This document shows, piece by piece, positions 13,874 through 25,079 of a stretch of DNA of 30,476 nt. This DNA comes from a virus. How positions within the stretch are numbered: position 1 is the first letter of the stretch; every line of letters begins with the position of its first letter. The notes under the pieces are model-generated. The model had not been told where the DNA came from, made no database searches, and was given only the letters and a program-made list of their open reading frames with translations. A program made the translations under genes and the position numbers. The DNA lies in IMG/VR virus record IMGVR_UViG_3300045988_142700, positions 1-30,476 of that record; one strand, given 5' to 3'.

Positions 13874-13918
13874 GTAACTAGCAAGTAACTAACAAGTAAC
13901 TAACAGTCGTAACTAACA
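13874..13918. repeat. four direct GTAACTA(A/G)CA repeats (candidate integrase arm-type sites, attP)
   Basis: Copies start at 13874, 13885, 13896 and 13909, about 60 bp from the integrase stop codon. Confidence 0.55.
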
Positions 13919-13977
13919 AAAATAAGAGCATCCGGGACGACTAATTTTGGCTCGAATGCTCTTTATATTAACTATAC

Positions 13978-15036
13978 CTATTTGATTTTTGAAATTTCTT
14001 CGCGTAACTGTTGCATCGTTCTATGTGTATATACTTTTTCTGTTATATCTTCAATCTGATGTCCAACGATTAATTTTAAAATATATTCGTTCATATTAAC
14101 TGACTTAGCTTTTGTTATGAATGTATGTCGTGTATCATGTGGTTTATGATTTAATCCGAATTTTTTATTTATTTTATTTAGTCTTCCTCTGTATTTATCA
14201 TAAGTCATGTGCATTCCTTGCTGACCGTTTTCGTCATTAAAAAGATAATCACTGTTCAATGTTACTGCTTTTTTGTAATTCTTTTCAACAAGCTCAAATA
14301 TTGCAGGGTGTATAGGTACATATCTATTGCGTCCAGCTTCACTTTTTAAACCGCCAAAAAAAGTATGATTTTGCAAATCAACATCAGCAATTTTTAAGGT
14401 TGCAAGCTCCTGAGGTCTCCAGCCACTGTAAATTCCTATCAGGACCATGTCAACAAAAGGAAAGTCAACATTATGCCAAAGCAAGTTGATTTCTTCGTCA
14501 GAAAAAGGAATACGAATGATTGTTGCATCTTCACGCTTCACGTTTTCACTTAGAGCAGCATAGTCTTTATCGACAATGTCATATTTCAGAGCATATTTAA
14601 AAAGCTGGTTGTAAAGCGATTTCATTCGTGATTTTGTGCTGTTGCCGATATTGGCATTCTTAATTGTATCTTCAAGATGATTAGGGCGTATGTCTCTCAT
14701 ACGCATGTCGTGAAGCGGTTTTGAATGATTATAAGCACTCTTATATGTTCGTGTTGCTGACGGAGCAATCTTTTCAAAATGTTCATTGCTCCATTTTTCA
14801 TATACATCTGAAAAGGTAAATTTGTGAGAGTCAATGTCATACGGATTCTGATTATAATTAATCAAGGCGGCCAGAGCCTCCTGCTTTGTTGAATAATATC
14901 CGATAGTCATATAGAACTGTTTAGCTTTTCCTGTTTTACAGTCTATAGTCCATCCTTTTGTTTTTCTGGCTATCCACGGCTTACGACGTTTGCCTGAGAG
15001 TTTATAAACGCTTCCCATTCCATTAGCATTTTTCAT
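13978..15036 (-). CDS. int: tyrosine integrase with an AP2-like N-terminal arm-binding domain
   Basis: 352 aa. N-terminus GSVYKLSGKRRKPWIARKT...GYYSTKQEALAAL. Catalytic signatures are GWRPQEL, HDTRHTF and GH...TEKVYTH. The RBS is GGAGGTG. Confidence 0.9.
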   Translation of the reverse strand: MKNANGMGSVYKLSGKRRKPWIARKTKGWTIDCKTGKAKQFYMTIGYYSTKQEALAALINYNQNPYDIDSHKFTFSDVYEKWSNEHFEKIAPSATRTYKSAYNHSKPLHDMRMRDIRPNHLEDTIKNANIGNSTKSRMKSLYNQLFKYALKYDIVDKDYAALSENVKREDATIIRIPFSDEEINLLWHNVDFPFVDMVLIGIYSGWRPQELATLKIADVDLQNHTFFGGLKSEAGRNRYVPIHPAIFELVEKNYKKAVTLNSDYLFNDENGQQGMHMTYDKYRGRLNKINKKFGLNHKPHDTRHTFITKAKSVNMNEYILKLIVGHQIEDITEKVYTHRTMQQLREEISKIK

Positions 15037-15215: not shown

Positions 15216-16202
15216 TTATCGGTCAATGCATTTCTTGCATGCTATGTATCCCATATTTTCAACATCTGTACGTTTGCCGGTGTAATATCCTAGATTTTCA
15301 GGCTTGATTTTCTTCACTTCGGCACATGTTTTTAAATGAAACTTGTTTGTTGATGTGTTTAAAACATAGTCAACATCTTTTTCAACATATATTTTTTCTT
15401 CCGGCTGTGGAGAATTGTCTTCGTTGATAATAACATTATTGTCAGAGCAGCCAGATTCTTGCTCATAAGTATTTACGTTATCATCAGTAGCAGGAGAAAT
15501 GTTTGTTTGTTCTTCTTGTTCATTATTGTTTTGATTTAATACATCAGAAGAGGATTCGTTGTTGCTTTTTATAGATTCTTGTTCAGCTGGTGCATTAGTT
15601 GTATATTCTTTATATTCGCTTGTTTGCTCTATATACGCAGAAGTAGTTTCGATATTTGAGGCAACTTGTTGCGGTGAATTATCTACAATCCATCCTGAAT
15701 TTATGATTGAAATTGCAACAATAACCCATATAGGAGTATACACACACATCAATGTTAAAGGCTTTTTTGGAATATTTTTGTTTTTATAAACCAATGCAGC
15801 GAGTAGAGCTATTCCCAAAGGCGGAAATAGAACAAACAAAAGCCATGATACTATTTTTTTATCTCTAATTGTTGAGTCGTCATCATCATTATTCATGTTC
15901 ATATTTGGTGAGTTATAATTGTTATATCCCGGATTAGATGCTCTTGGAGTTGAATTTTGATTCGCGGATGCGGAAAAGTTACTTGCTGTTGTATTTGTAT
16001 TGTTTTTGCCGTTGGATGTGCTATCTATATTTTGATAATACAAACCGGTTCCAGGAATTCCAACAGATGATGTTTTACGTCCGGAAGAATTAATAGTATA
16101 GTGCATTCCATTGTTACCAAAGGTAAATCCTACACTTTTTTTGTTTATGTTAAATTTTGCTCCAGACCCTAATTTTATTGACTTTCTAAATCTTAATGAC
16201 AT
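15216..16202 (-). CDS. membrane protein: N-terminal DUF4236-like domain, two TM helices and a C-terminal H/C3 zinc motif
   Basis: MSLRFRKSIKLGSGAKFNINKKSVGFTFG...GIPGTGLYY is DUF4236-like. The TM helices are WLLFVLFPPLGIALLAALV and VYTPIWVIVAISII. The C-terminus is KFHLKTCAEV...GYIACKKCI. The ATG at 16202 has an AGAGGTG RBS; an alternative ATG lies at 16220. Confidence 0.7.
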   Translation of the reverse strand: MSLRFRKSIKLGSGAKFNINKKSVGFTFGNNGMHYTINSSGRKTSSVGIPGTGLYYQNIDSTSNGKNNTNTTASNFSASANQNSTPRASNPGYNNYNSPNMNMNNDDDDSTIRDKKIVSWLLFVLFPPLGIALLAALVYKNKNIPKKPLTLMCVYTPIWVIVAISIINSGWIVDNSPQQVASNIETTSAYIEQTSEYKEYTTNAPAEQESIKSNNESSSDVLNQNNNEQEEQTNISPATDDNVNTYEQESGCSDNNVIINEDNSPQPEEKIYVEKDVDYVLNTSTNKFHLKTCAEVKKIKPENLGYYTGKRTDVENMGYIACKKCIDR

Positions 16203-16270
16203 ATCTGACACCTCTTTCATTTGAATAATTCTATAACATATAAATTAGGTTCAAAATTTTAAATAGTTAC

Positions 16271-16300
16271 TTGATATAATAATATTGTATATGATATAAT
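16271..16300 (+). promoter_or_regulatory. candidate early rightward promoter
   Basis: TTGATA, 18-nt spacer, TATAAT, followed by the inverted repeat ATTCAGG...CCTGAAT (16307-16332). Confidence 0.4.
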
Positions 16301-16473
16301 ATTAATATTCAGGAGTAGGCGTTTGCCTGAATTTATGCAACAGGGCAAGCTTGGAATTGGAGATGCTGTTAAGATGTCCTCAATTTGGACATATAACATA
16401 GTTCCGGCTGCACTGGCTAAACGTCAGGGAATGACGCTGGAAGAGTTACAGAAAAAAATTGAGGAGGTGAGAA

Positions 16474-16632
16474 ATGAGTGAGCATAAAAGAAAGCGGCTG
16501 ACTGCCAAATCAACAGTCAACCGCAATACATCAACAACAAACTTAACAGACAGCTTAAAAGCGATTTGCTTGACTGGCTGTCAACGGCGGGATTCGTCGT
16601 ATTCATTCTATCATCATTCACATTTATGTTAG
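16474..16632 (+). CDS. small basic hypothetical protein (52 aa); coding frame uncertain
   Basis: Strong RBS GAGGAGGTGAGAA before the ATG. An overlapping frame also looks protein-like (..LKSDLLDWLSTAGFVVFILSSFTFMLVH), so the true product is unresolved. Confidence 0.3.
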   Translation: MSEHKRKRLTAKSTVNRNTSTTNLTDSLKAICLTGCQRRDSSYSFYHHSHLC

Positions 16633-16725
16633 TACATTAATCAGGAGGTAAATTTTTATGATTTGAATTGAGCGAATTAAAAAACATATTAATTATATCT
16701 TAACATACAAGACAGGAGGCGTGCC

Positions 16726-16962
16726 ATGCAGGGCTTTAAATATGAACCAAATACAACAGTTCCTTACAATATAATTAACGGAAAAAAGATATTTAAGGTA
16801 GTTGCACCTTTTTATTCTGATGAAAAAGGTGTCATATATGGAAAATGCCCGGCTTGCGGCGGCAGTGTTTGCAGAATATGGAATCTTTCCAATTGCGGAA
16901 ATTGCGGCTGTGAAATAAGCTGGCACGCCATTCATGTTGATGGATGGGGAGATATTGACTAA
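16726..16962 (+). CDS. zinc-ribbon protein (78 aa)
   Basis: RBS is ACAGGAGG. Contains CPACGG...CGNCGC. Confidence 0.55.
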   Translation: MQGFKYEPNTTVPYNIINGKKIFKVVAPFYSDEKGVIYGKCPACGGSVCRIWNLSNCGNCGCEISWHAIHVDGWGDID

Positions 16963-16984
16963 GCATAATCGGAGGTAAACATTT

Positions 16985-17116
16985 ATGAGCGAAAAACTTA
17001 CACCGTCTGAAATAGAAAAATTCGCAAAAGAGTGGCTTGAAGTCACTGTCAGTCTTTCAAGATTTATAAAAAAGTCTGAATCAGAATCAGAAAAAATCAA
17101 AGAAAATCAAAGTTGA
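16985..17116 (+). CDS. small hypothetical protein (43 aa) whose 3' end runs into the iteron array
   Basis: RBS CGGAGG with ATG at 16985. Translation is MSEKLTPSEIEKFAKEWLEVTVSLSRFIKKSESESEKIKENQS. Confidence 0.35.
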   Translation: MSEKLTPSEIEKFAKEWLEVTVSLSRFIKKSESESEKIKENQS

Positions 17117-17190
17117 TAAAAGTTAGTAAAAGAATTTCAAAGTTAATCAGAGAAAATCAAAGAAAATCAGAGAAAATCAAAGTTAATAGA
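17081..17190 (+). repeat. array of 11 contiguous 10-bp direct repeats (candidate tubC-like centromere)
   Basis: Units start every 10 nt from 17081 to 17181. AGAAAATCA(A/G)-type units start at 17091, 17101, 17151, 17161 and 17171. AGTT(A/G)(A/G)T(A/C)(A/G)(A/G)-type units start at 17111, 17121, 17141 and 17181. Degenerate units start at 17081 and 17131. Confidence 0.8.
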
Positions 17191-17203
17191 ACAGGTGTTT
17201 AAA

Positions 17204-17476
17204 ATGAACAGAATTATGATTGGCGTTTTGATTACATTGCGTGACAGTTCGGCACTTGACTGTCTTACAGCTATGTCTGTATACGAGCTTGCTGATACAG
17301 AGCTCCTATATGGCATCTGTGTTAATACGATACACAAAAATGTTATGAAGCTGTTAGCTTCAGGCTTTATTGATAAAGGATTTAAAGACAGTCGTGCATT
17401 AACTTATTTTGTGACGCAAAAAGGACTTGATATATTAAATAAATTAAAGACAGGAGTGATAAAAGTTGAAAGATAG
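17204..17476 (+). CDS. small winged-helix DNA-binding protein (TubR-like centromere binder, by context)
   Basis: About 90 aa. MSVYELADTELLYGICVNTIHKNVMKLLASGFIDKGFKDSRALTYFVTQKGLDIL reads as a MarR/ArsR-like winged-helix-turn-helix. Its end overlaps the tubulin-like gene. An alternative GTG start lies at 17195. Confidence 0.6.
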   Translation: MNRIMIGVLITLRDSSALDCLTAMSVYELADTELLYGICVNTIHKNVMKLLASGFIDKGFKDSRALTYFVTQKGLDILNKLKTGVIKVER

Positions 17477-18494
17477 AATTGGTTTTGTCGCAGTCGGACA
17501 GGCTGGCGGCAACATTGGAAGATTATTTGAAGATAAAGGCTATTCAGTGTTATATCTTAACACTTCGGATGAAGACCTTGAGACAATCGACGGAGTACAT
17601 AAATATCATATCAGCGGCGGAGAGGGCTGTAATAAAGACAGGGATAAGGCTAAACAGCTTGTTGTAGATGACTTTGACAATATCGCCGAACGCATTGACG
17701 AGACAGTAAGTGCAGAGCTTTTATTTGTCATATTTGCTTCAGGCGGCGGAACAGGAAGCGGAGCGGGTCCAATGCTTGCCGACTTGTTAATTGACGATTC
17801 AAGAAATGTCGGAATAATTACAGTCATTCCGTCTGAAAGCGAAAGCATAAAGTCACAGATAAACAGTTATTATTGTTTTAATGAGATTTTTGCAATTGAG
17901 CAGACAGCGGCACTGTTTGTTCTTGACAATAACAAGGGCGAACGCCGTGAGCTTAATGAAAACTTTGTAAATGCTTTTAATTCATTTATTGAAATTCCGC
18001 AGAAATATAAATCAGAGAACGGAAATATTGACAAAGCGGAAATATTTGAATCGCTCAATTCGCACGGCATGGCAATAGTTGTAAGAAGTGAAAAAAATGA
18101 CGTTGCTGAGCTTGTTGCACAAATAGACAGCGGAGTATTTGCAATTCCGGAGCATGACAAGGCAGTTAAATATATAAGCTGTGCCTGTGGTGCCAGAATT
18201 AAAGATTTTTCTGACATAAAGAAAGCTGCCGGAAATCCATTTGATGAATTTCGTGCATATTCTGATGATGAGGCAGTGCTGCTTCTTTCAGGGCTTTCAT
18301 TTCCACTGACAAGAATTAATACAATACATGAGCTTATCAATGCAAATAAAGAATCTATTATAAACAGCACAAATATAAAAAGCGTGCAGCTTAAAGATGA
18401 TTTTGACTTTTTGAGTAAAAAGGTGAATGTGCCACAGACAAAGTCACAGCCAAAATCAAGGCGTGAAATTTTAGCAAAATATCTGAATAAATAG
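17466..18494 (+). CDS. tubZ: tubulin/FtsZ-superfamily GTPase (TubZ/PhuZ-like)
   Basis: TTG start 9 nt after AGGAG. VGQAGGNIG at aa 10-18 is T1-loop-like. GGGTGSG at aa 93-99 (nt 17742-17762) is the tubulin signature. Total 342 aa. Confidence 0.8.
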   Translation: MKDRIGFVAVGQAGGNIGRLFEDKGYSVLYLNTSDEDLETIDGVHKYHISGGEGCNKDRDKAKQLVVDDFDNIAERIDETVSAELLFVIFASGGGTGSGAGPMLADLLIDDSRNVGIITVIPSESESIKSQINSYYCFNEIFAIEQTAALFVLDNNKGERRELNENFVNAFNSFIEIPQKYKSENGNIDKAEIFESLNSHGMAIVVRSEKNDVAELVAQIDSGVFAIPEHDKAVKYISCACGARIKDFSDIKKAAGNPFDEFRAYSDDEAVLLLSGLSFPLTRINTIHELINANKESIINSTNIKSVQLKDDFDFLSKKVNVPQTKSQPKSRREILAKYLNK

Positions 18495-18503
18495 TAGGAA
18501 AGA

Positions 18504-18728
18504 ATGTGTGACATGAACCGGAAGAATTCAAACGAAACACAGTATGAATTTATGACATGTTATTGTTGCGGCAGAAGATTTTACTTTGGCGGCTATACGT
18601 ATGAAAGCTATGCATATAAGGCTTGTGACGGTTATCGCCGCTGTATCTTCTGCTCGTATAAGTGTCATCAGAAATTTCTGAAATATAAGGCAGAAAGAAA
18701 AAAGAATCATAAAAGAAAAAGAGGGTGA
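18504..18728 (+). CDS. Cys/His-rich small protein with a basic C-terminal tail
   Basis: 74 aa. CYCCGRRF...CIFCSYKCHQKF followed by KAERKKNHKRKRG. Tightly linked downstream of the tubZ-like gene. Confidence 0.5.
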   Translation: MCDMNRKNSNETQYEFMTCYCCGRRFYFGGYTYESYAYKACDGYRRCIFCSYKCHQKFLKYKAERKKNHKRKRG

Positions 18729-18732
18729 GCTT

Positions 18733-19509
18733 ATGGCTGAAAAGAGAATGTTTTCGACAAAAATAATAAATAGTGATCCATTCAAAGAGATGCCGCTGTC
18801 TGCACAGGCTTTGTACTTCCATCTCGGAATGAACGCAGACGACGAGGGATTTTTAAACAATGCAAAGAGCGTACAGCGTTCAATTCTTGCATCAGAGGAT
18901 GATTTAAAACTTCTGATTGCAAAAGATTTTATCATATCTTTTCCGTCAGGCGTTATCGTCATAAAGCACTGGAAGATGCATAATCAGATACAGGCAAGCC
19001 GCCTTAAACCTACGCAGTATACAGAGGAGAGAAGCATGCTTGCCGTTAAGGAAAACAAGGCGTACACGCTTAATTTAAACAATGTTGACAATTTGTCAAC
19101 ATCTGCTGACAATCGCATTGCTAGTGTAGAAGAGTGTAGTGTAGATAAGATTAGATTAGATGAGTGTAGTGTAGTGCAGTCTGCTGAAAATATGACATCA
19201 GCACATGCAGACACACAGCTTACACATTTGTCATATTCACCTATGACATGGCAGGAATATCAATTTCTTGCGGGTAAATACGGCAAAACACTTGTTGATT
19301 CAAAGATACAGCGTGCAAGCCAGTACAAAAACACATACAACTACGCAACAATTAAAAAATGGTGTGAAGAAGATGCACAGAAGCGTAGGCACAGTAATAA
19401 ATTTAATAACTTCAGTCAACGTGAAGTCGCTGATTTTGACGCTCTTGAATTAGAATTGATTGATAACACAATTGTTCAGGATTGCAGTTCAGGTGATGAC
19501 GGTGGGTAG
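18733..19509 (+). CDS. replication initiator / replisome-organizer-like protein
   Basis: The N-terminus KRMFSTKIINSDPFKEMPLSAQALYFHLGMNADDEGFLNN...VIVIKHWKMHNQIQ matches a widespread Firmicutes phage/plasmid replication-protein N-domain. An internal repeat cluster looks like an origin. Confidence 0.6.
   Translation: MAEKRMFSTKIINSDPFKEMPLSAQALYFHLGMNADDEGFLNNAKSVQRSILASEDDLKLLIAKDFIISFPSGVIVIKHWKMHNQIQASRLKPTQYTEERSMLAVKENKAYTLNLNNVDNLSTSADNRIASVEECSVDKIRLDECSVVQSAENMTSAHADTQLTHLSYSPMTWQEYQFLAGKYGKTLVDSKIQRASQYKNTYNYATIKKWCEEDAQKRRHSNKFNNFSQREVADFDALELELIDNTIVQDCSSGDDGG
19084..19174. repeat. origin-like cluster inside the replication gene
   Basis: Perfect palindrome GTTGACAATTTGTCAAC at 19084-19100. 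GAGTGTAGTGTAG occurs at 19132-19144 and 19162-19174. A TAGTGTAG copy lies at 19122-19129, and AGATTAGATTAGAT lies between the 13-mers. Confidence 0.55.
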
Positions 19510-19883: not shown

Positions 19884-20075
19884 ATGGGTGATTCAGCTAA
19901 ACAGGAGATATGTGCAATACTTGACTTGCTACACGGCTCACTTGTAAGAAACGGCGTGAGCATGGCAACAAACGAAAAAGGAGATTTGATATTTTTCGAT
20001 ACAGCGGCATATGTCAATAGCGGCAAGAAGACTATTGATGGATTTAAGGTTAATATTAATAATCTTGTTGAATAA
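19884..20075 (+). CDS. hypothetical protein (63 aa), intact copy of a duplicated small gene
   Basis: RBS GGGGG. The 3' 123 nt are repeated at 20903-21009. Confidence 0.5.
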   Translation: MGDSAKQEICAILDLLHGSLVRNGVSMATNEKGDLIFFDTAAYVNSGKKTIDGFKVNINNLVE

Positions 20076-20111
20076 GGCTCGTTTCAGCGGAAAGGAAATG
20101 GACATAGATTT

Positions 20112-20837
20112 ATGATAGTACATTGTTTATTTGAACAGTCAGGAACATTCAAGAACGCTTTCAAGAAGTATGGAATTGAAGCCTACGACTATGATATTCA
20201 GAATGAATTTAACGAAACCGACTATGTTACTGACCTTTTTAAAGAGATAGAAGGGGGGCATCAAGGCGAGCCGAGTTTGTTTGATAAGATAAGCCCTGAT
20301 GATTTGATATTTGCATTTTTCCCTTGCATAAGGTTTGAAAATCAGATAATGCTGTGGCTCAGAGGACAGTCGGCAAGTCAGAAAAAATGGTCTTTAGAAA
20401 AGAAATGCGAATTTGATATGAATTTGCTTAAAGAAGTTTCACTTATGTATGATTTAGTAAACAAATTGTTTATTATTTGCATGAGAAAAGGATTGAAGCT
20501 GGTAATGGAGAATCCTTATTCAGAAGAGCATTTTTTAAGGCGATATTGGTGTTGTTCCCCGGCGGTAATTGACAGAGATAGAAGAGATAATGGAGATTAC
20601 TTTAAAAAGCCTACACAGTATTGGTTTTTGAATTGCGAGCCACAGAACAATCTTGTTTTTGAGCCAATTAAGGATGTCGGGATATATGCTAAATGGGAGC
20701 ATCGAACAATGAATGATTATCGTGTTACTGGAGCGAGTAATGTTAAAACAGCAAGGTCAATGATACACCCACAGTACGCAGATAGATTTATCAGGGAATA
20801 TATTCTTGATGAGGAAATATGGAGAGCTAAACAATGA
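20112..20837 (+). CDS. divergent DNA cytosine-C5 methyltransferase-like protein
   Basis: 241 aa. CLFEQSGTF resembles motif I (FxGxG), FFPC resembles motif IV (PC) and VMENP resembles motif VI (ENV). No adjacent restriction endonuclease gene. Confidence 0.4.
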   Translation: MIVHCLFEQSGTFKNAFKKYGIEAYDYDIQNEFNETDYVTDLFKEIEGGHQGEPSLFDKISPDDLIFAFFPCIRFENQIMLWLRGQSASQKKWSLEKKCEFDMNLLKEVSLMYDLVNKLFIICMRKGLKLVMENPYSEEHFLRRYWCCSPAVIDRDRRDNGDYFKKPTQYWFLNCEPQNNLVFEPIKDVGIYAKWEHRTMNDYRVTGASNVKTARSMIHPQYADRFIREYILDEEIWRAKQ

Positions 20838-20971
20838 AAGACGAAACAAAGCAGGAAATACAGATTCTACTTGACCTACTCAAAGGCAGTCTTACAAAAA
20901 ATGGCGTGAGCATGGCAACAAACGAAAAAGGCGATTTAATCTTTTTCGATACAGCGGCAAGAAGACTGTAG
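20834..20971 (+). pseudogene. truncated, frameshifted paralogue of 19884..20075
   Basis: MKDETKQEIQILLDLLKGSLTKNGVSMATNEKGDLIFFDTAA, then a frameshift caused by a 16-nt deletion between two AGCGGCA copies. The remaining homologous 3' end (to 21009) is out of frame. Confidence 0.6.
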
Positions 20972-21143
20972 ATGGATTTAAGGTTAATATTAATAATCTT
21001 GTTAAATAAAGCCCGGTGCTTTTTTAATAGCCAGAAAAGGAGAATATGTCTCGAAAGAGACTTCAAGAATGGCAATACAGGCAATTGAAACTGTTCAGAA
21101 ATTATCTGAGAGGAAAATGACAATAGATGCTCTTTAAAACTAT

Positions 21144-24537: not shown

Positions 24538-24614
24538 AAAAAATAAAGAGTGGACACCAGTAGACATTTATATATGTTAATATGTAATTGCTTCATAAAT
24601 GTTTACCAACAGAC

Positions 24615-24649
24615 AAAGCAGAGCGGAGTAAAATCCAATCTGCTTTTTT
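24615..24649 (+). terminator. hairpin plus T-run
   Basis: AAAGCAGA, 16-nt loop, TCTGCTTTTTT. Confidence 0.45.
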
Positions 24650-24651
24650 AT

Positions 24652-24721
24652 GCACTTTGGAGCAATGGCAGCTCGGCAGTTCCCTTCACTGTAGATTCCG
24701 GTTCGATTCCGGAAAGGTGCA
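24652..24721 (+). tRNA. tRNA-like cloverleaf (anticodon CCU/Arg if the loop is the standard 7 nt), non-canonical in detail
   Basis: Acceptor stem GCACTTT/AAGGTGC. D arm GAGC-AATGGCA-GCTC. Anticodon arm GCAGT-TCCCTTC-ACTGT. Variable loop AGAT. T arm TCCGG-TTCGATT-CCGGA. Deviations: one linker nt at positions 8/9, C33 and T37. Confidence 0.45.
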
Positions 24722-24740
24722 ATTACAAGGGCGGTTGAAT

Positions 24741-25079
24741 ATGACAGAATTACAGATTATATATGTAAAAGATTGTATAAAAGCAAAAGATATGCACAGG
24801 TTTTATATCTGGAGTGAGTGGCTTAAAGTAAGAAAAAGAGTTTTGGATTTAGACAAAGACGAGTGTCAGGATTGCAAAGCAAAAGGGATATATACAAAAG
24901 CAACGACTGTACATCATATTAATCATGTTAAAAATCGTCCTGACTTGGCACTTGAAATATATACAAATGATGGAGACACACGCAGACGCAATCTAGTAAG
25001 TCTTTGTCGCGATTGCCATGAGATTCGGCATGGCAGAAAGTACAGCGACAGGACGGCACTAACCGCTGAACGTTGGTAA
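24741..25079 (+). CDS. HNH endonuclease (packaging-associated)
   Basis: ECQDCKAKG...VHHINH...NLVSLCRDCHEIRHG, directly upstream of the terminase genes. Confidence 0.85.
   Translation: MTELQIIYVKDCIKAKDMHRFYIWSEWLKVRKRVLDLDKDECQDCKAKGIYTKATTVHHINHVKNRPDLALEIYTNDGDTRRRNLVSLCRDCHEIRHGRKYSDRTALTAERW

Follow-up and report, generated by a model that had tools for sequence, protein, structure and literature searches.

The DNA analysed here, called the window throughout, is the whole stretch of 30,476 nt of the virus record IMGVR_UViG_3300045988_142700 in IMG/VR. Directly upstream of a tubR-tubZ gene pair it holds an array of ten contiguous 10-bp direct repeats, which is very likely a tubC-type site. 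This site would be coated cooperatively by the adaptor protein TubR and captured by filaments of TubZ, a tubulin/FtsZ-like GTPase, through the conserved C-terminal tail of the latter. In addition, the array is probably the operator of this type III, i.e. tubulin-based, TubRZ module. Binding, filament capture and repression are all proposed here by analogy with the characterised TubRZC systems. The array is shared by more than 100 uncultured gut prophages, which make up a large clade, so far uncharacterised, of prophages that integrate in gut Clostridia. A description of this clade was not found in the literature searched.

A preliminary description of the window had cut the segment 17081-17190 into eleven consecutive 10-mers. 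Read in steps of ten bases the segment does divide in this way (Table 1). Nine of the eleven 10-mers start with AG, and the top strand was correctly called purine-rich (72% purine over the array). The two unit families proposed there can be seen as well, except that the unit at 17091 is one mismatch off the family it was assigned to and the unit at 17131 is a mixture of both. Because of the comparison with relatives described below, a register of TCARAG followed by a 4-nt spacer is more informative. In this register there are ten clean units and a degenerate one at each edge of the array, and the two families turn into two spacer classes, AAAA versus TTRR. Two central core units (TAAAAG) are weaker matches, still in phase.

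The periodicity was confirmed by self-identity, by shuffling and by Tandem Repeats Finder (TRF). Over 17081-17190 the self-identity is 0.70 at lag 10, 0.67 at lag 20 and 0.61 at lag 30, versus 0.31-0.42 at lags which are not multiples of 10. The lag-10 value is the highest for any 110-bp segment of the window and any lag from 5 to 20 (background mean 0.27, standard deviation 0.05), and none of 100,000 shuffles of the array region attained it, the shuffle maximum being 0.59. TRF reports a repeat at 17085-17182 with period 10, 9.8 copies and a score of 84, the top score in the window. The paired motif TCARAGNNNNTCARAG, searched with at most one mismatch, has nine matches in the window, eight of which lie within the array (chance expectation 0.86). 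There is no second cluster of this motif anywhere in the window. The array is a single uninterrupted block in one phase, and it ends 7-17 bp ahead of the tubR start when ten to eleven units are counted.

The two genes downstream of the array encode a true TubR and a true TubZ. By itself, the 90-amino acid (aa) product of the first gene gives only a weak winged-helix match (Pfam HTH_45). A profile of seven family members matches TubR of the Clostridium botulinum prophage c-st (PDB 6tey) with an E-value of 1.2e-10, covering 78 of 81 residues, and TubR of pBtoxis (4aso) with an E-value of 0.014. The preliminary description, which had called this protein TubR-like, is thus borne out by the profile match, and the gene that follows is tubZ. 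Its product exceeds the cut-offs of both Pfam Tubulin (PF00091, 3.5e-14) and TubZ_C_3 (PF22340, 9.9e-7), finds its best solved structures in c-st TubZ (4xcq and 3v3t, E-value 1.7e-32) and is 27% identical to c-st TubZ by tblastn. The tail residue Y339 is invariant, c-st included. The tubR gene overlaps the start of tubZ by 11 nt, an operon-like arrangement.

Relatives of the module were collected from IMG/VR, metagenomes and GTDB genomes by back-translated pattern scans, which yielded 172 loci encoding TubZ relatives. The arrays were counted over the 200 bp before tubR in loci whose TubZ shares 43-97% identity with the window TubZ, which gave 108 distinct upstream regions. At least seven consecutive in-phase 10-bp units were found in 101 of these regions (median 9, maximum 14); random 200-bp segments of the same loci reached this number in 10 out of 3000 cases (0.3%). 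The remaining seven regions have a 20-bp period, either with ATCCAA every 20 bp or with TATGAAA and TAATCC in alternation. Therefore, no region among the 108 has tubRZ without repeats, a case which the preliminary description had named as speaking against a centromere. Successive core-like hexamers are spaced by 10 bp in 577 instances, by 20 bp in 54 and, as the next commonest distance, by 6 bp in 17. The arrays of the relatives are contiguous, forming one block of 70-140 bp, and the gap between array and tubR mostly measures 10-30 bp (range 0-40). The commonest core in the clade is TCAGAG. The spacers are bimodal clade-wide (TAAA, AAAA and ATAA versus TTTA, TTAA, TTAG, TTGA and TTCG), therefore the two unit types of the window are a family trait. 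A 20-bp dimer as the basic unit, formed by alternation of A- and TT-spacers, was also considered; the excess of alternation is weak (216 changes versus 193 ± 8.5 expected) and too little for a general claim.

In near-identical relatives the arrays differ by exactly one or two whole units, having 10, 9 or 8 of them. Since their length shifts by whole units only, the phase is preserved. An extra gene of about 130-190 aa is located between tubR and tubZ in several loci (L119, L121-L124, L028, L029, L035, L016, L099, L022 and L023). These loci were first taken for exceptions, but also there the array remains directly upstream of tubR. A replication gene and a small downstream zinc-finger gene next to the module are common to only about nine of the closest relatives. 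As these neighbours occur in about nine loci and the array in more than 100, the array travels with tubR and not with the replication module. When the 3.3-kb module was compared to GenBank phages by blastn, only one match of 132 bp was obtained, in a replication gene. A distant subclade (L081, L084 and L086, TubZ 33-34% identical) has tubRZ without the array. Upstream of tubR, at about 1150-1250 of these loci, a near-consensus promoter (TTGACA ... TATCAT/TATTGT) is followed by the palindrome GATTGCAC-N-GTGCAATC, a layout which is a different regulatory or centromere design.

In the comparison suggested by the preliminary description, it is the period rather than the sequence which is conserved in the relatives. 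When the TubR sequences were grouped by the helix starting at the invariant N41-T42, in a descriptive comparison that ignores kinship, the helix NT[IVL]FKK was found together with the array core TCAGAG, NTVSKK with TCCAAG or TCCGAG, YDTIYRY with TCCGT, YGTVYKY with TACAAT, NTLYKI with TACGAG and xTL[HYF]RR with TGAAA. The window itself has the helix NTIHKN and the cores TCAAAG and TCAGAG. Thus, the core shifts with the helix group while the overall TubZ divergence stays similar (47-57%) and while the period is constant at 10 bp or 20 bp across all groups. Such a co-variation is expected of a cognate pair of protein and site, and it is the strongest computational argument for TubR as the protein likely to read the repeats.

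With the characterised systems as a guide, TubR would recognise the hexamer TCARAG, recurring every 10 bp, and, binding cooperatively, would turn the block of about 100 bp into a filament of DNA coated by protein. The TubZ filaments would then capture the TubR-coated array through their C-terminal tail. Situated between the sole recognisable upstream promoter and the tubR ribosome-binding site, the array may furthermore allow bound TubR to throttle transcription of tubRZ, which would amount to autoregulation. Because the array merges with the tubR ribosome-binding site, there is no space for a promoter between array and tubR. With a promoter-like site only further upstream, the leader with its bound TubR would be transcribed, so that TubR might form a roadblock.

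The 10-bp period also has consequences for the geometry of such a filament. B-DNA has about 10.5 bp per turn. The placement of all sites on one face of the helix, as previously proposed, therefore holds approximately; it would be exact only with a helical repeat of 10.0 bp. With 10.5 bp per turn, successive sites would be rotated by about -17 degrees with a 10-bp period, +17 degrees with an 11-bp period and +51 degrees with a 12-bp period. As the rotation per site is negative here, the handedness with which the TubR filament winds along the DNA would be different, and perhaps the reverse, unless TubR alters the twist. For TubR of c-st, an untwisting of the DNA by 6-7 degrees per bp has been reported (PMC6009700); this would suit periods above 10.5 bp but not periods below it.

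Several results weigh against a tubC-type site of the known kind. The AlphaFold2 model of TubR, computed from a five-sequence alignment, has a predicted local distance difference test score (pLDDT) of 47 and is unusable; the TubR assignment rests on sequence profiles. TubY, which is needed for stable maintenance in the studied systems, was not found: the best tblastn match of c-st TubY to the window has an E-value of 1.1, and over all fetched loci only the c-st group gave matches. A non-homologous protein might stand in for it functionally. A promoter scan of 16200-18800 called no promoter-like site on the + strand between 16300 and 17204, nor was a convincing -35/-10 pair seen by eye in or just upstream of the array. 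Since no promoter could be placed at the array, its operator function is a conjecture. Furthermore, the single unsplit block of about 100 bp (clade median 9 units or 90 bp) is below the perimeter of the c-st ring, which was measured as 50-67 nm or about 150-200 bp. As the array is short and unsplit, the double-ring model does not hold here in its published form. Finally, the relatives have an integrase beside them and are embedded in bacterial contigs of 150-880 kb, where plasmid-prophage partition is not an obvious use. Among them are L008 in Anaerocolumna xylanovorans DSM 12503 (contig of 329 kb), L009 in Lachnospira intestinalis CLA-AA-H89B (227 kb) and loci on metagenome contigs of up to 884 kb. 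In the relative L172, a 99%-identical TubR belongs to a prophage on a 150-kb contig, the tyrosine integrase of which abuts host genes.

A rival reading is that the array is an operator only, TubR being an autorepressor of the early operon whose complex does not attach the DNA to TubZ filaments. The position of the array, after the upstream promoter-like site and before the ribosome-binding site of tubR, would suit this, and the promoter and palindromic operator of the subclade with TubZ 33-34% identical indicate that regulation without an array is possible in tubRZ phages. However, simple repression needs no 7-14 phased sites kept in every lineage. The overlapping tubR and tubZ genes are inherited together, the TubZ C-terminal tail, which is the known docking site for TubR-tubC, is conserved, and the same repeats do both jobs in every studied system (PMC5016525). 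We therefore consider a pure operator unlikely. Even less probable is the binding of the repeats by another protein, such as the upstream zinc-ribbon protein or a host factor, with the proximity of tubR being incidental. It is true that a CxxC...CxxC gene, of two sequence types, ends at or within the array in 47 of 102 loci by motif and is detectable by tblastn in 40. Nevertheless, more than half of the loci keep the array without this gene, the core hexamer co-varies with the TubR helix, and a changed gene order leaves the array next to tubR.

The iterons of replication origins are commonly phased direct repeats, and a gene for a DnaD-like helicase loader lies about 1.2 kb downstream of the array. 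That the repeats are origin iterons of this adjacent replication module is nevertheless highly improbable, considering that the replication gene is present in only nine close relatives, whereas array and tubR occur together in more than 100 loci, and that a separate 15-bp tandem repeat within the loader gene is a better origin candidate. Next to no probability is given to an array without a function of its own, be it a slippage repeat, a coding repeat (which would either extend TubR at its N-terminus or form the end of the upstream open reading frame, ORF) or an RNA element of the tubR leader. What speaks for a coding repeat is that the public gene calls P0001-P0003 (L172 10001-10354) extend "TubR" to 117 aa, from a TTG within the array, and that a 43-aa ORF ends inside the array. 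Yet a 10-bp period cannot encode a peptide repeat, the frame is not kept when close relatives gain or lose whole units, and all distant TubR proteins begin with MNR or LNR just after the array. In the window the frame of the 117-aa extension is closed. The loss of one unit, as in L172-L174, opens the upstream frame and thus explains these calls, which we regard as an annotation artefact. As to slippage, neutral repeats would not retain period and core down to 43% TubZ identity. An RNA element was rejected, since Rfam at permissive thresholds found nothing in the array and the RNA fold was no better than that of shuffled sequences (z +0.8).

The positions of the array units, of the module and of its neighbours are given in Table 1.

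Table 1. Repeat units, tubRZ genes and neighbouring features of the window (for 10-mers, the position is that of the first base).
Feature	Position	Strand	Description
10-mer TCAGAATCAG	17081		
10-mer AAAAAATCAA	17091		
10-mer AGAAAATCAA	17101, 17151, 17171		identical copies
10-mer AGTTGATAAA	17111		
10-mer AGTTAGTAAA	17121		
10-mer AGAATTTCAA	17131		
10-mer AGTTAATCAG	17141		
10-mer AGAAAATCAG	17161		
10-mer AGTTAATAGA	17181		
Array core	17087..17186	+	ten contiguous 10-bp direct repeats, register TCARAG + 4-nt spacer; proposed TubR sites (tubC-like); units 1-5: TCAGAAAAAA, TCAAAGAAAA, TCAAAGTTGA, TAAAAGTTAG, TAAAAGAATT; units 6-10: TCAAAGTTAA, TCAGAGAAAA, TCAAAGAAAA, TCAGAGAAAA, TCAAAGTTAA
Degenerate 5' array edge	17078..17086	+	GAATCA repeat with 6-bp period (TRF 17078-17092); one out-of-phase TCAGAA inside
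Degenerate last unit TAGAACAGGT	17187..17203	+	runs into the tubR ribosome-binding site AGGTG, 17193-17197
tubR	17204..17476	+	90-aa winged-helix protein, proposed centromere-binding adaptor; AGGTG 6 nt upstream of ATG
tubZ	17466..18494	+	342-aa tubulin/FtsZ-like GTPase; TTG start, GGGTGSG motif, basic C-terminal tail
43-aa ORF	16985..17116	+	GGAGG ribosome-binding site; last 10 codons come from the first three repeat units
Zinc-ribbon gene	16726..16962	+	78 aa, CxxC...CxxC; upstream of the array; frequent, not universal neighbour
Sigma-70-like promoter	16271..16300	+	TTGATA-18-TATAAT with TG extension, 11/12 matches; sole strong one upstream on the same strand
Tyrosine integrase	13978-15036	-	preceded by large tail-side ORFs
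DnaD-like helicase loader	18733-19509		
DNA methyltransferase gene	20112-20837		follows the loader

The promoter-like site is followed by small early genes and then by array, tubR, tubZ, loader and methyltransferase gene. In this temperate phage, which carries an integrase gene, the tubRZ pair heads the early operon on the replication side, and it is likely that the promoter-like site starts this operon, which would read through the array into tubRZ. The site points away from a divergent DUF4236 gene (region 15216-16220). Between the integrase gene and the early operon no gene for a helix-turn-helix repressor was recognised in the window; the relative L172 has an HTH_3 gene there.

Both the 43-aa ORF and the ORF taken here as tubR exist exactly as the preliminary description had them. 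The former is limited to loci with TubZ at least 75% identical and is shared by about nine of the closest relatives. In other subclades the ORF that reaches into the array is instead that of the upstream zinc-ribbon gene, the frame of which continues into the array in many loci (for instance L005, 3360-3620). It may be that this gene assists the module as an accessory, or that it is just a frequent neighbour; as a universal partner its product was rejected because of the count of 47 out of 102 loci.

Further observations concern the remainder of the window. About 60 bp past the 3' end of the integrase gene, at 13874-13919, there are four copies of the 11-bp unit GTAACTAACAA, which may be arm-type integrase sites or part of attP. 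The 15-bp tandem repeat in the loader gene (TAGTGTAGATGAGTG-like, 3.5 copies) is located at 19122-19174 and is a candidate replication origin inside a replication gene. The methyltransferase gene is flanked by a direct duplication of about 160 bp (19918-20081 and 20868-21015, 84-92% identical) with two copies of a small ORF, one of 63 aa and a truncated one of 45 aa. It looks as if this gene was inserted by a local duplication or was then followed by one. A tRNA-Arg (anticodon CCT) at 24651-24722 lies inside a 163-aa ORF (24588-25079, + strand), upstream of terminase-like genes. Further downstream, ORFs resembling those for the terminase large subunit, portal and ClpP protease agree in size and order with the Pfam-annotated TerL, portal and CLP_protease genes of L172.

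If the array is a tubC-type site coated by TubR, the life style of the relatives bears on what the module may do. No TubZ more than 30% identical was found in 72,556 plasmid records or in 50,697 GenBank phage records. Given the integrated relatives and the lack of any such plasmid or isolated phage, the module is unlikely to serve the partition of a plasmid prophage. For the window element itself we infer an integrating temperate phage. Since the relatives are integrated and TubY was not found, the module probably does its work soon after induction or infection, on phage DNA that has been excised or is replicating, although we say so with much less confidence. A tentative extension, towards which we remain somewhat sceptical, is that a single-block, 10-bp-phased TubR filament, without TubY or a double ring, might position excised replicating DNA in the lytic cycle of temperate phages of gut Clostridia, with a readable code of TubR helix and hexamer that would have diversified in more than 100 lineages.

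So far, work on TubRZC systems has been confined to a few Bacillus plasmids and a single plasmid prophage of Clostridium, and the double-ring models of the segrosome rest on every known tubC being split. Here the clade offers a minimal, contiguous putative centromere with a phase of 10 versus 11 or 12 bp. The co-variation of core and helix provides a ready series for studying how TubR reads DNA and how the spacing of repeats sets the geometry of the filament. As its elements appear to integrate into the chromosome, the clade also poses the question of what use a tubulin "partition" module is to a phage which has no need of partition.

In the known systems tubC, a group of direct repeats, always precedes tubR; it binds TubR and represses tubRZ, and the TubZ tail binds only the assembled TubR-tubC complex (PMC6009700, PMC5016525, PMC7762940). 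All centromeres characterised so far are split into blocks, which led to the proposal of a double ring as the typical architecture (PMC6009700). The closest solved homologues of the window proteins are TubR and TubZ of the c-st prophage, which has a TubRZ(Y) system. Its tubC, formerly tubS, resembles the window array in being phage-borne, located upstream of tubR-tubZ in the same orientation and composed of direct repeats with more than one iteron type. It is 350 bp long and split, with the two iterons TTGAC, spaced by 6 bp, and (A/T)GAA, and it has been proposed that c-st TubR coats and bends this DNA and covers part of the regulatory region (PMC6009700). Our own measurement on about 500 bp upstream of c-st tubR gave a period of 11/22 bp over more than 130 bp plus further blocks, in agreement with the published tubC. 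Unlike the window, c-st has a predicted promoter between repeats and tubR, encodes TubY downstream and is a plasmid prophage, whereas in the window the repeats, with TCARAG as their core and a period of 10 bp, fill one unbroken stretch of about 100 bp that borders on the tubR ribosome-binding site.

The pBtoxis-type site of Bacillus thuringiensis also consists of short direct repeats upstream of tubR-tubZ but belongs to a plasmid and not to a phage. We measured it on pBTHD789-3, the TubR of which is 100% identical to pBtoxis TubR over a 54-aa query segment. There, 3 + 4 units about 35 bp apart have a period of 12 bp, in accordance with the period given in the preliminary description, and a MerR-type tubY gene is located upstream. 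The pBtoxis tubC is both centromere and operator (PMC5016525). In the tubR-upstream region of pBM400, neither TRF nor autocorrelation detected a tandem array. Compared with these sites, the array of the window is tubC-like and is set apart by the 10-bp period, the single uninterrupted block (70-140 bp in the clade), the lack of a spacer to the tubR ribosome-binding site and the absence of a detectable TubY. To this extent the distinct architecture claimed earlier stands, but its composition of two iterons was already known from c-st.

With regard to architecture, parC of the Staphylococcus plasmid pSK41 (type II, ParMRC) is similar. Its tandem repeats, made of 10-bp sub-units, form one contiguous, unsplit stretch immediately before the operon, and the adaptor coats this site to give a superhelical filament (PMC5016525). 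The ribbon-helix-helix protein ParR and the actin-like ParM are both non-homologous to the window proteins, so this likeness is an analogy of architecture only. A filament protein and a co-transcribed adaptor on repeats upstream of its own operon are likewise known from alpS-AlpA-AlpC of CGP3, an integrated prophage of Corynebacterium glutamicum, although AlpC is actin-like and adaptor and repeats are unrelated to those of the window. The AlpAC genes of CGP3 are early genes and are needed for efficient replication of the phage DNA after induction (PMC4446434). AlpAC-alpS is the closest functional precedent for the part that a TubRZ module could play in an integrating phage.

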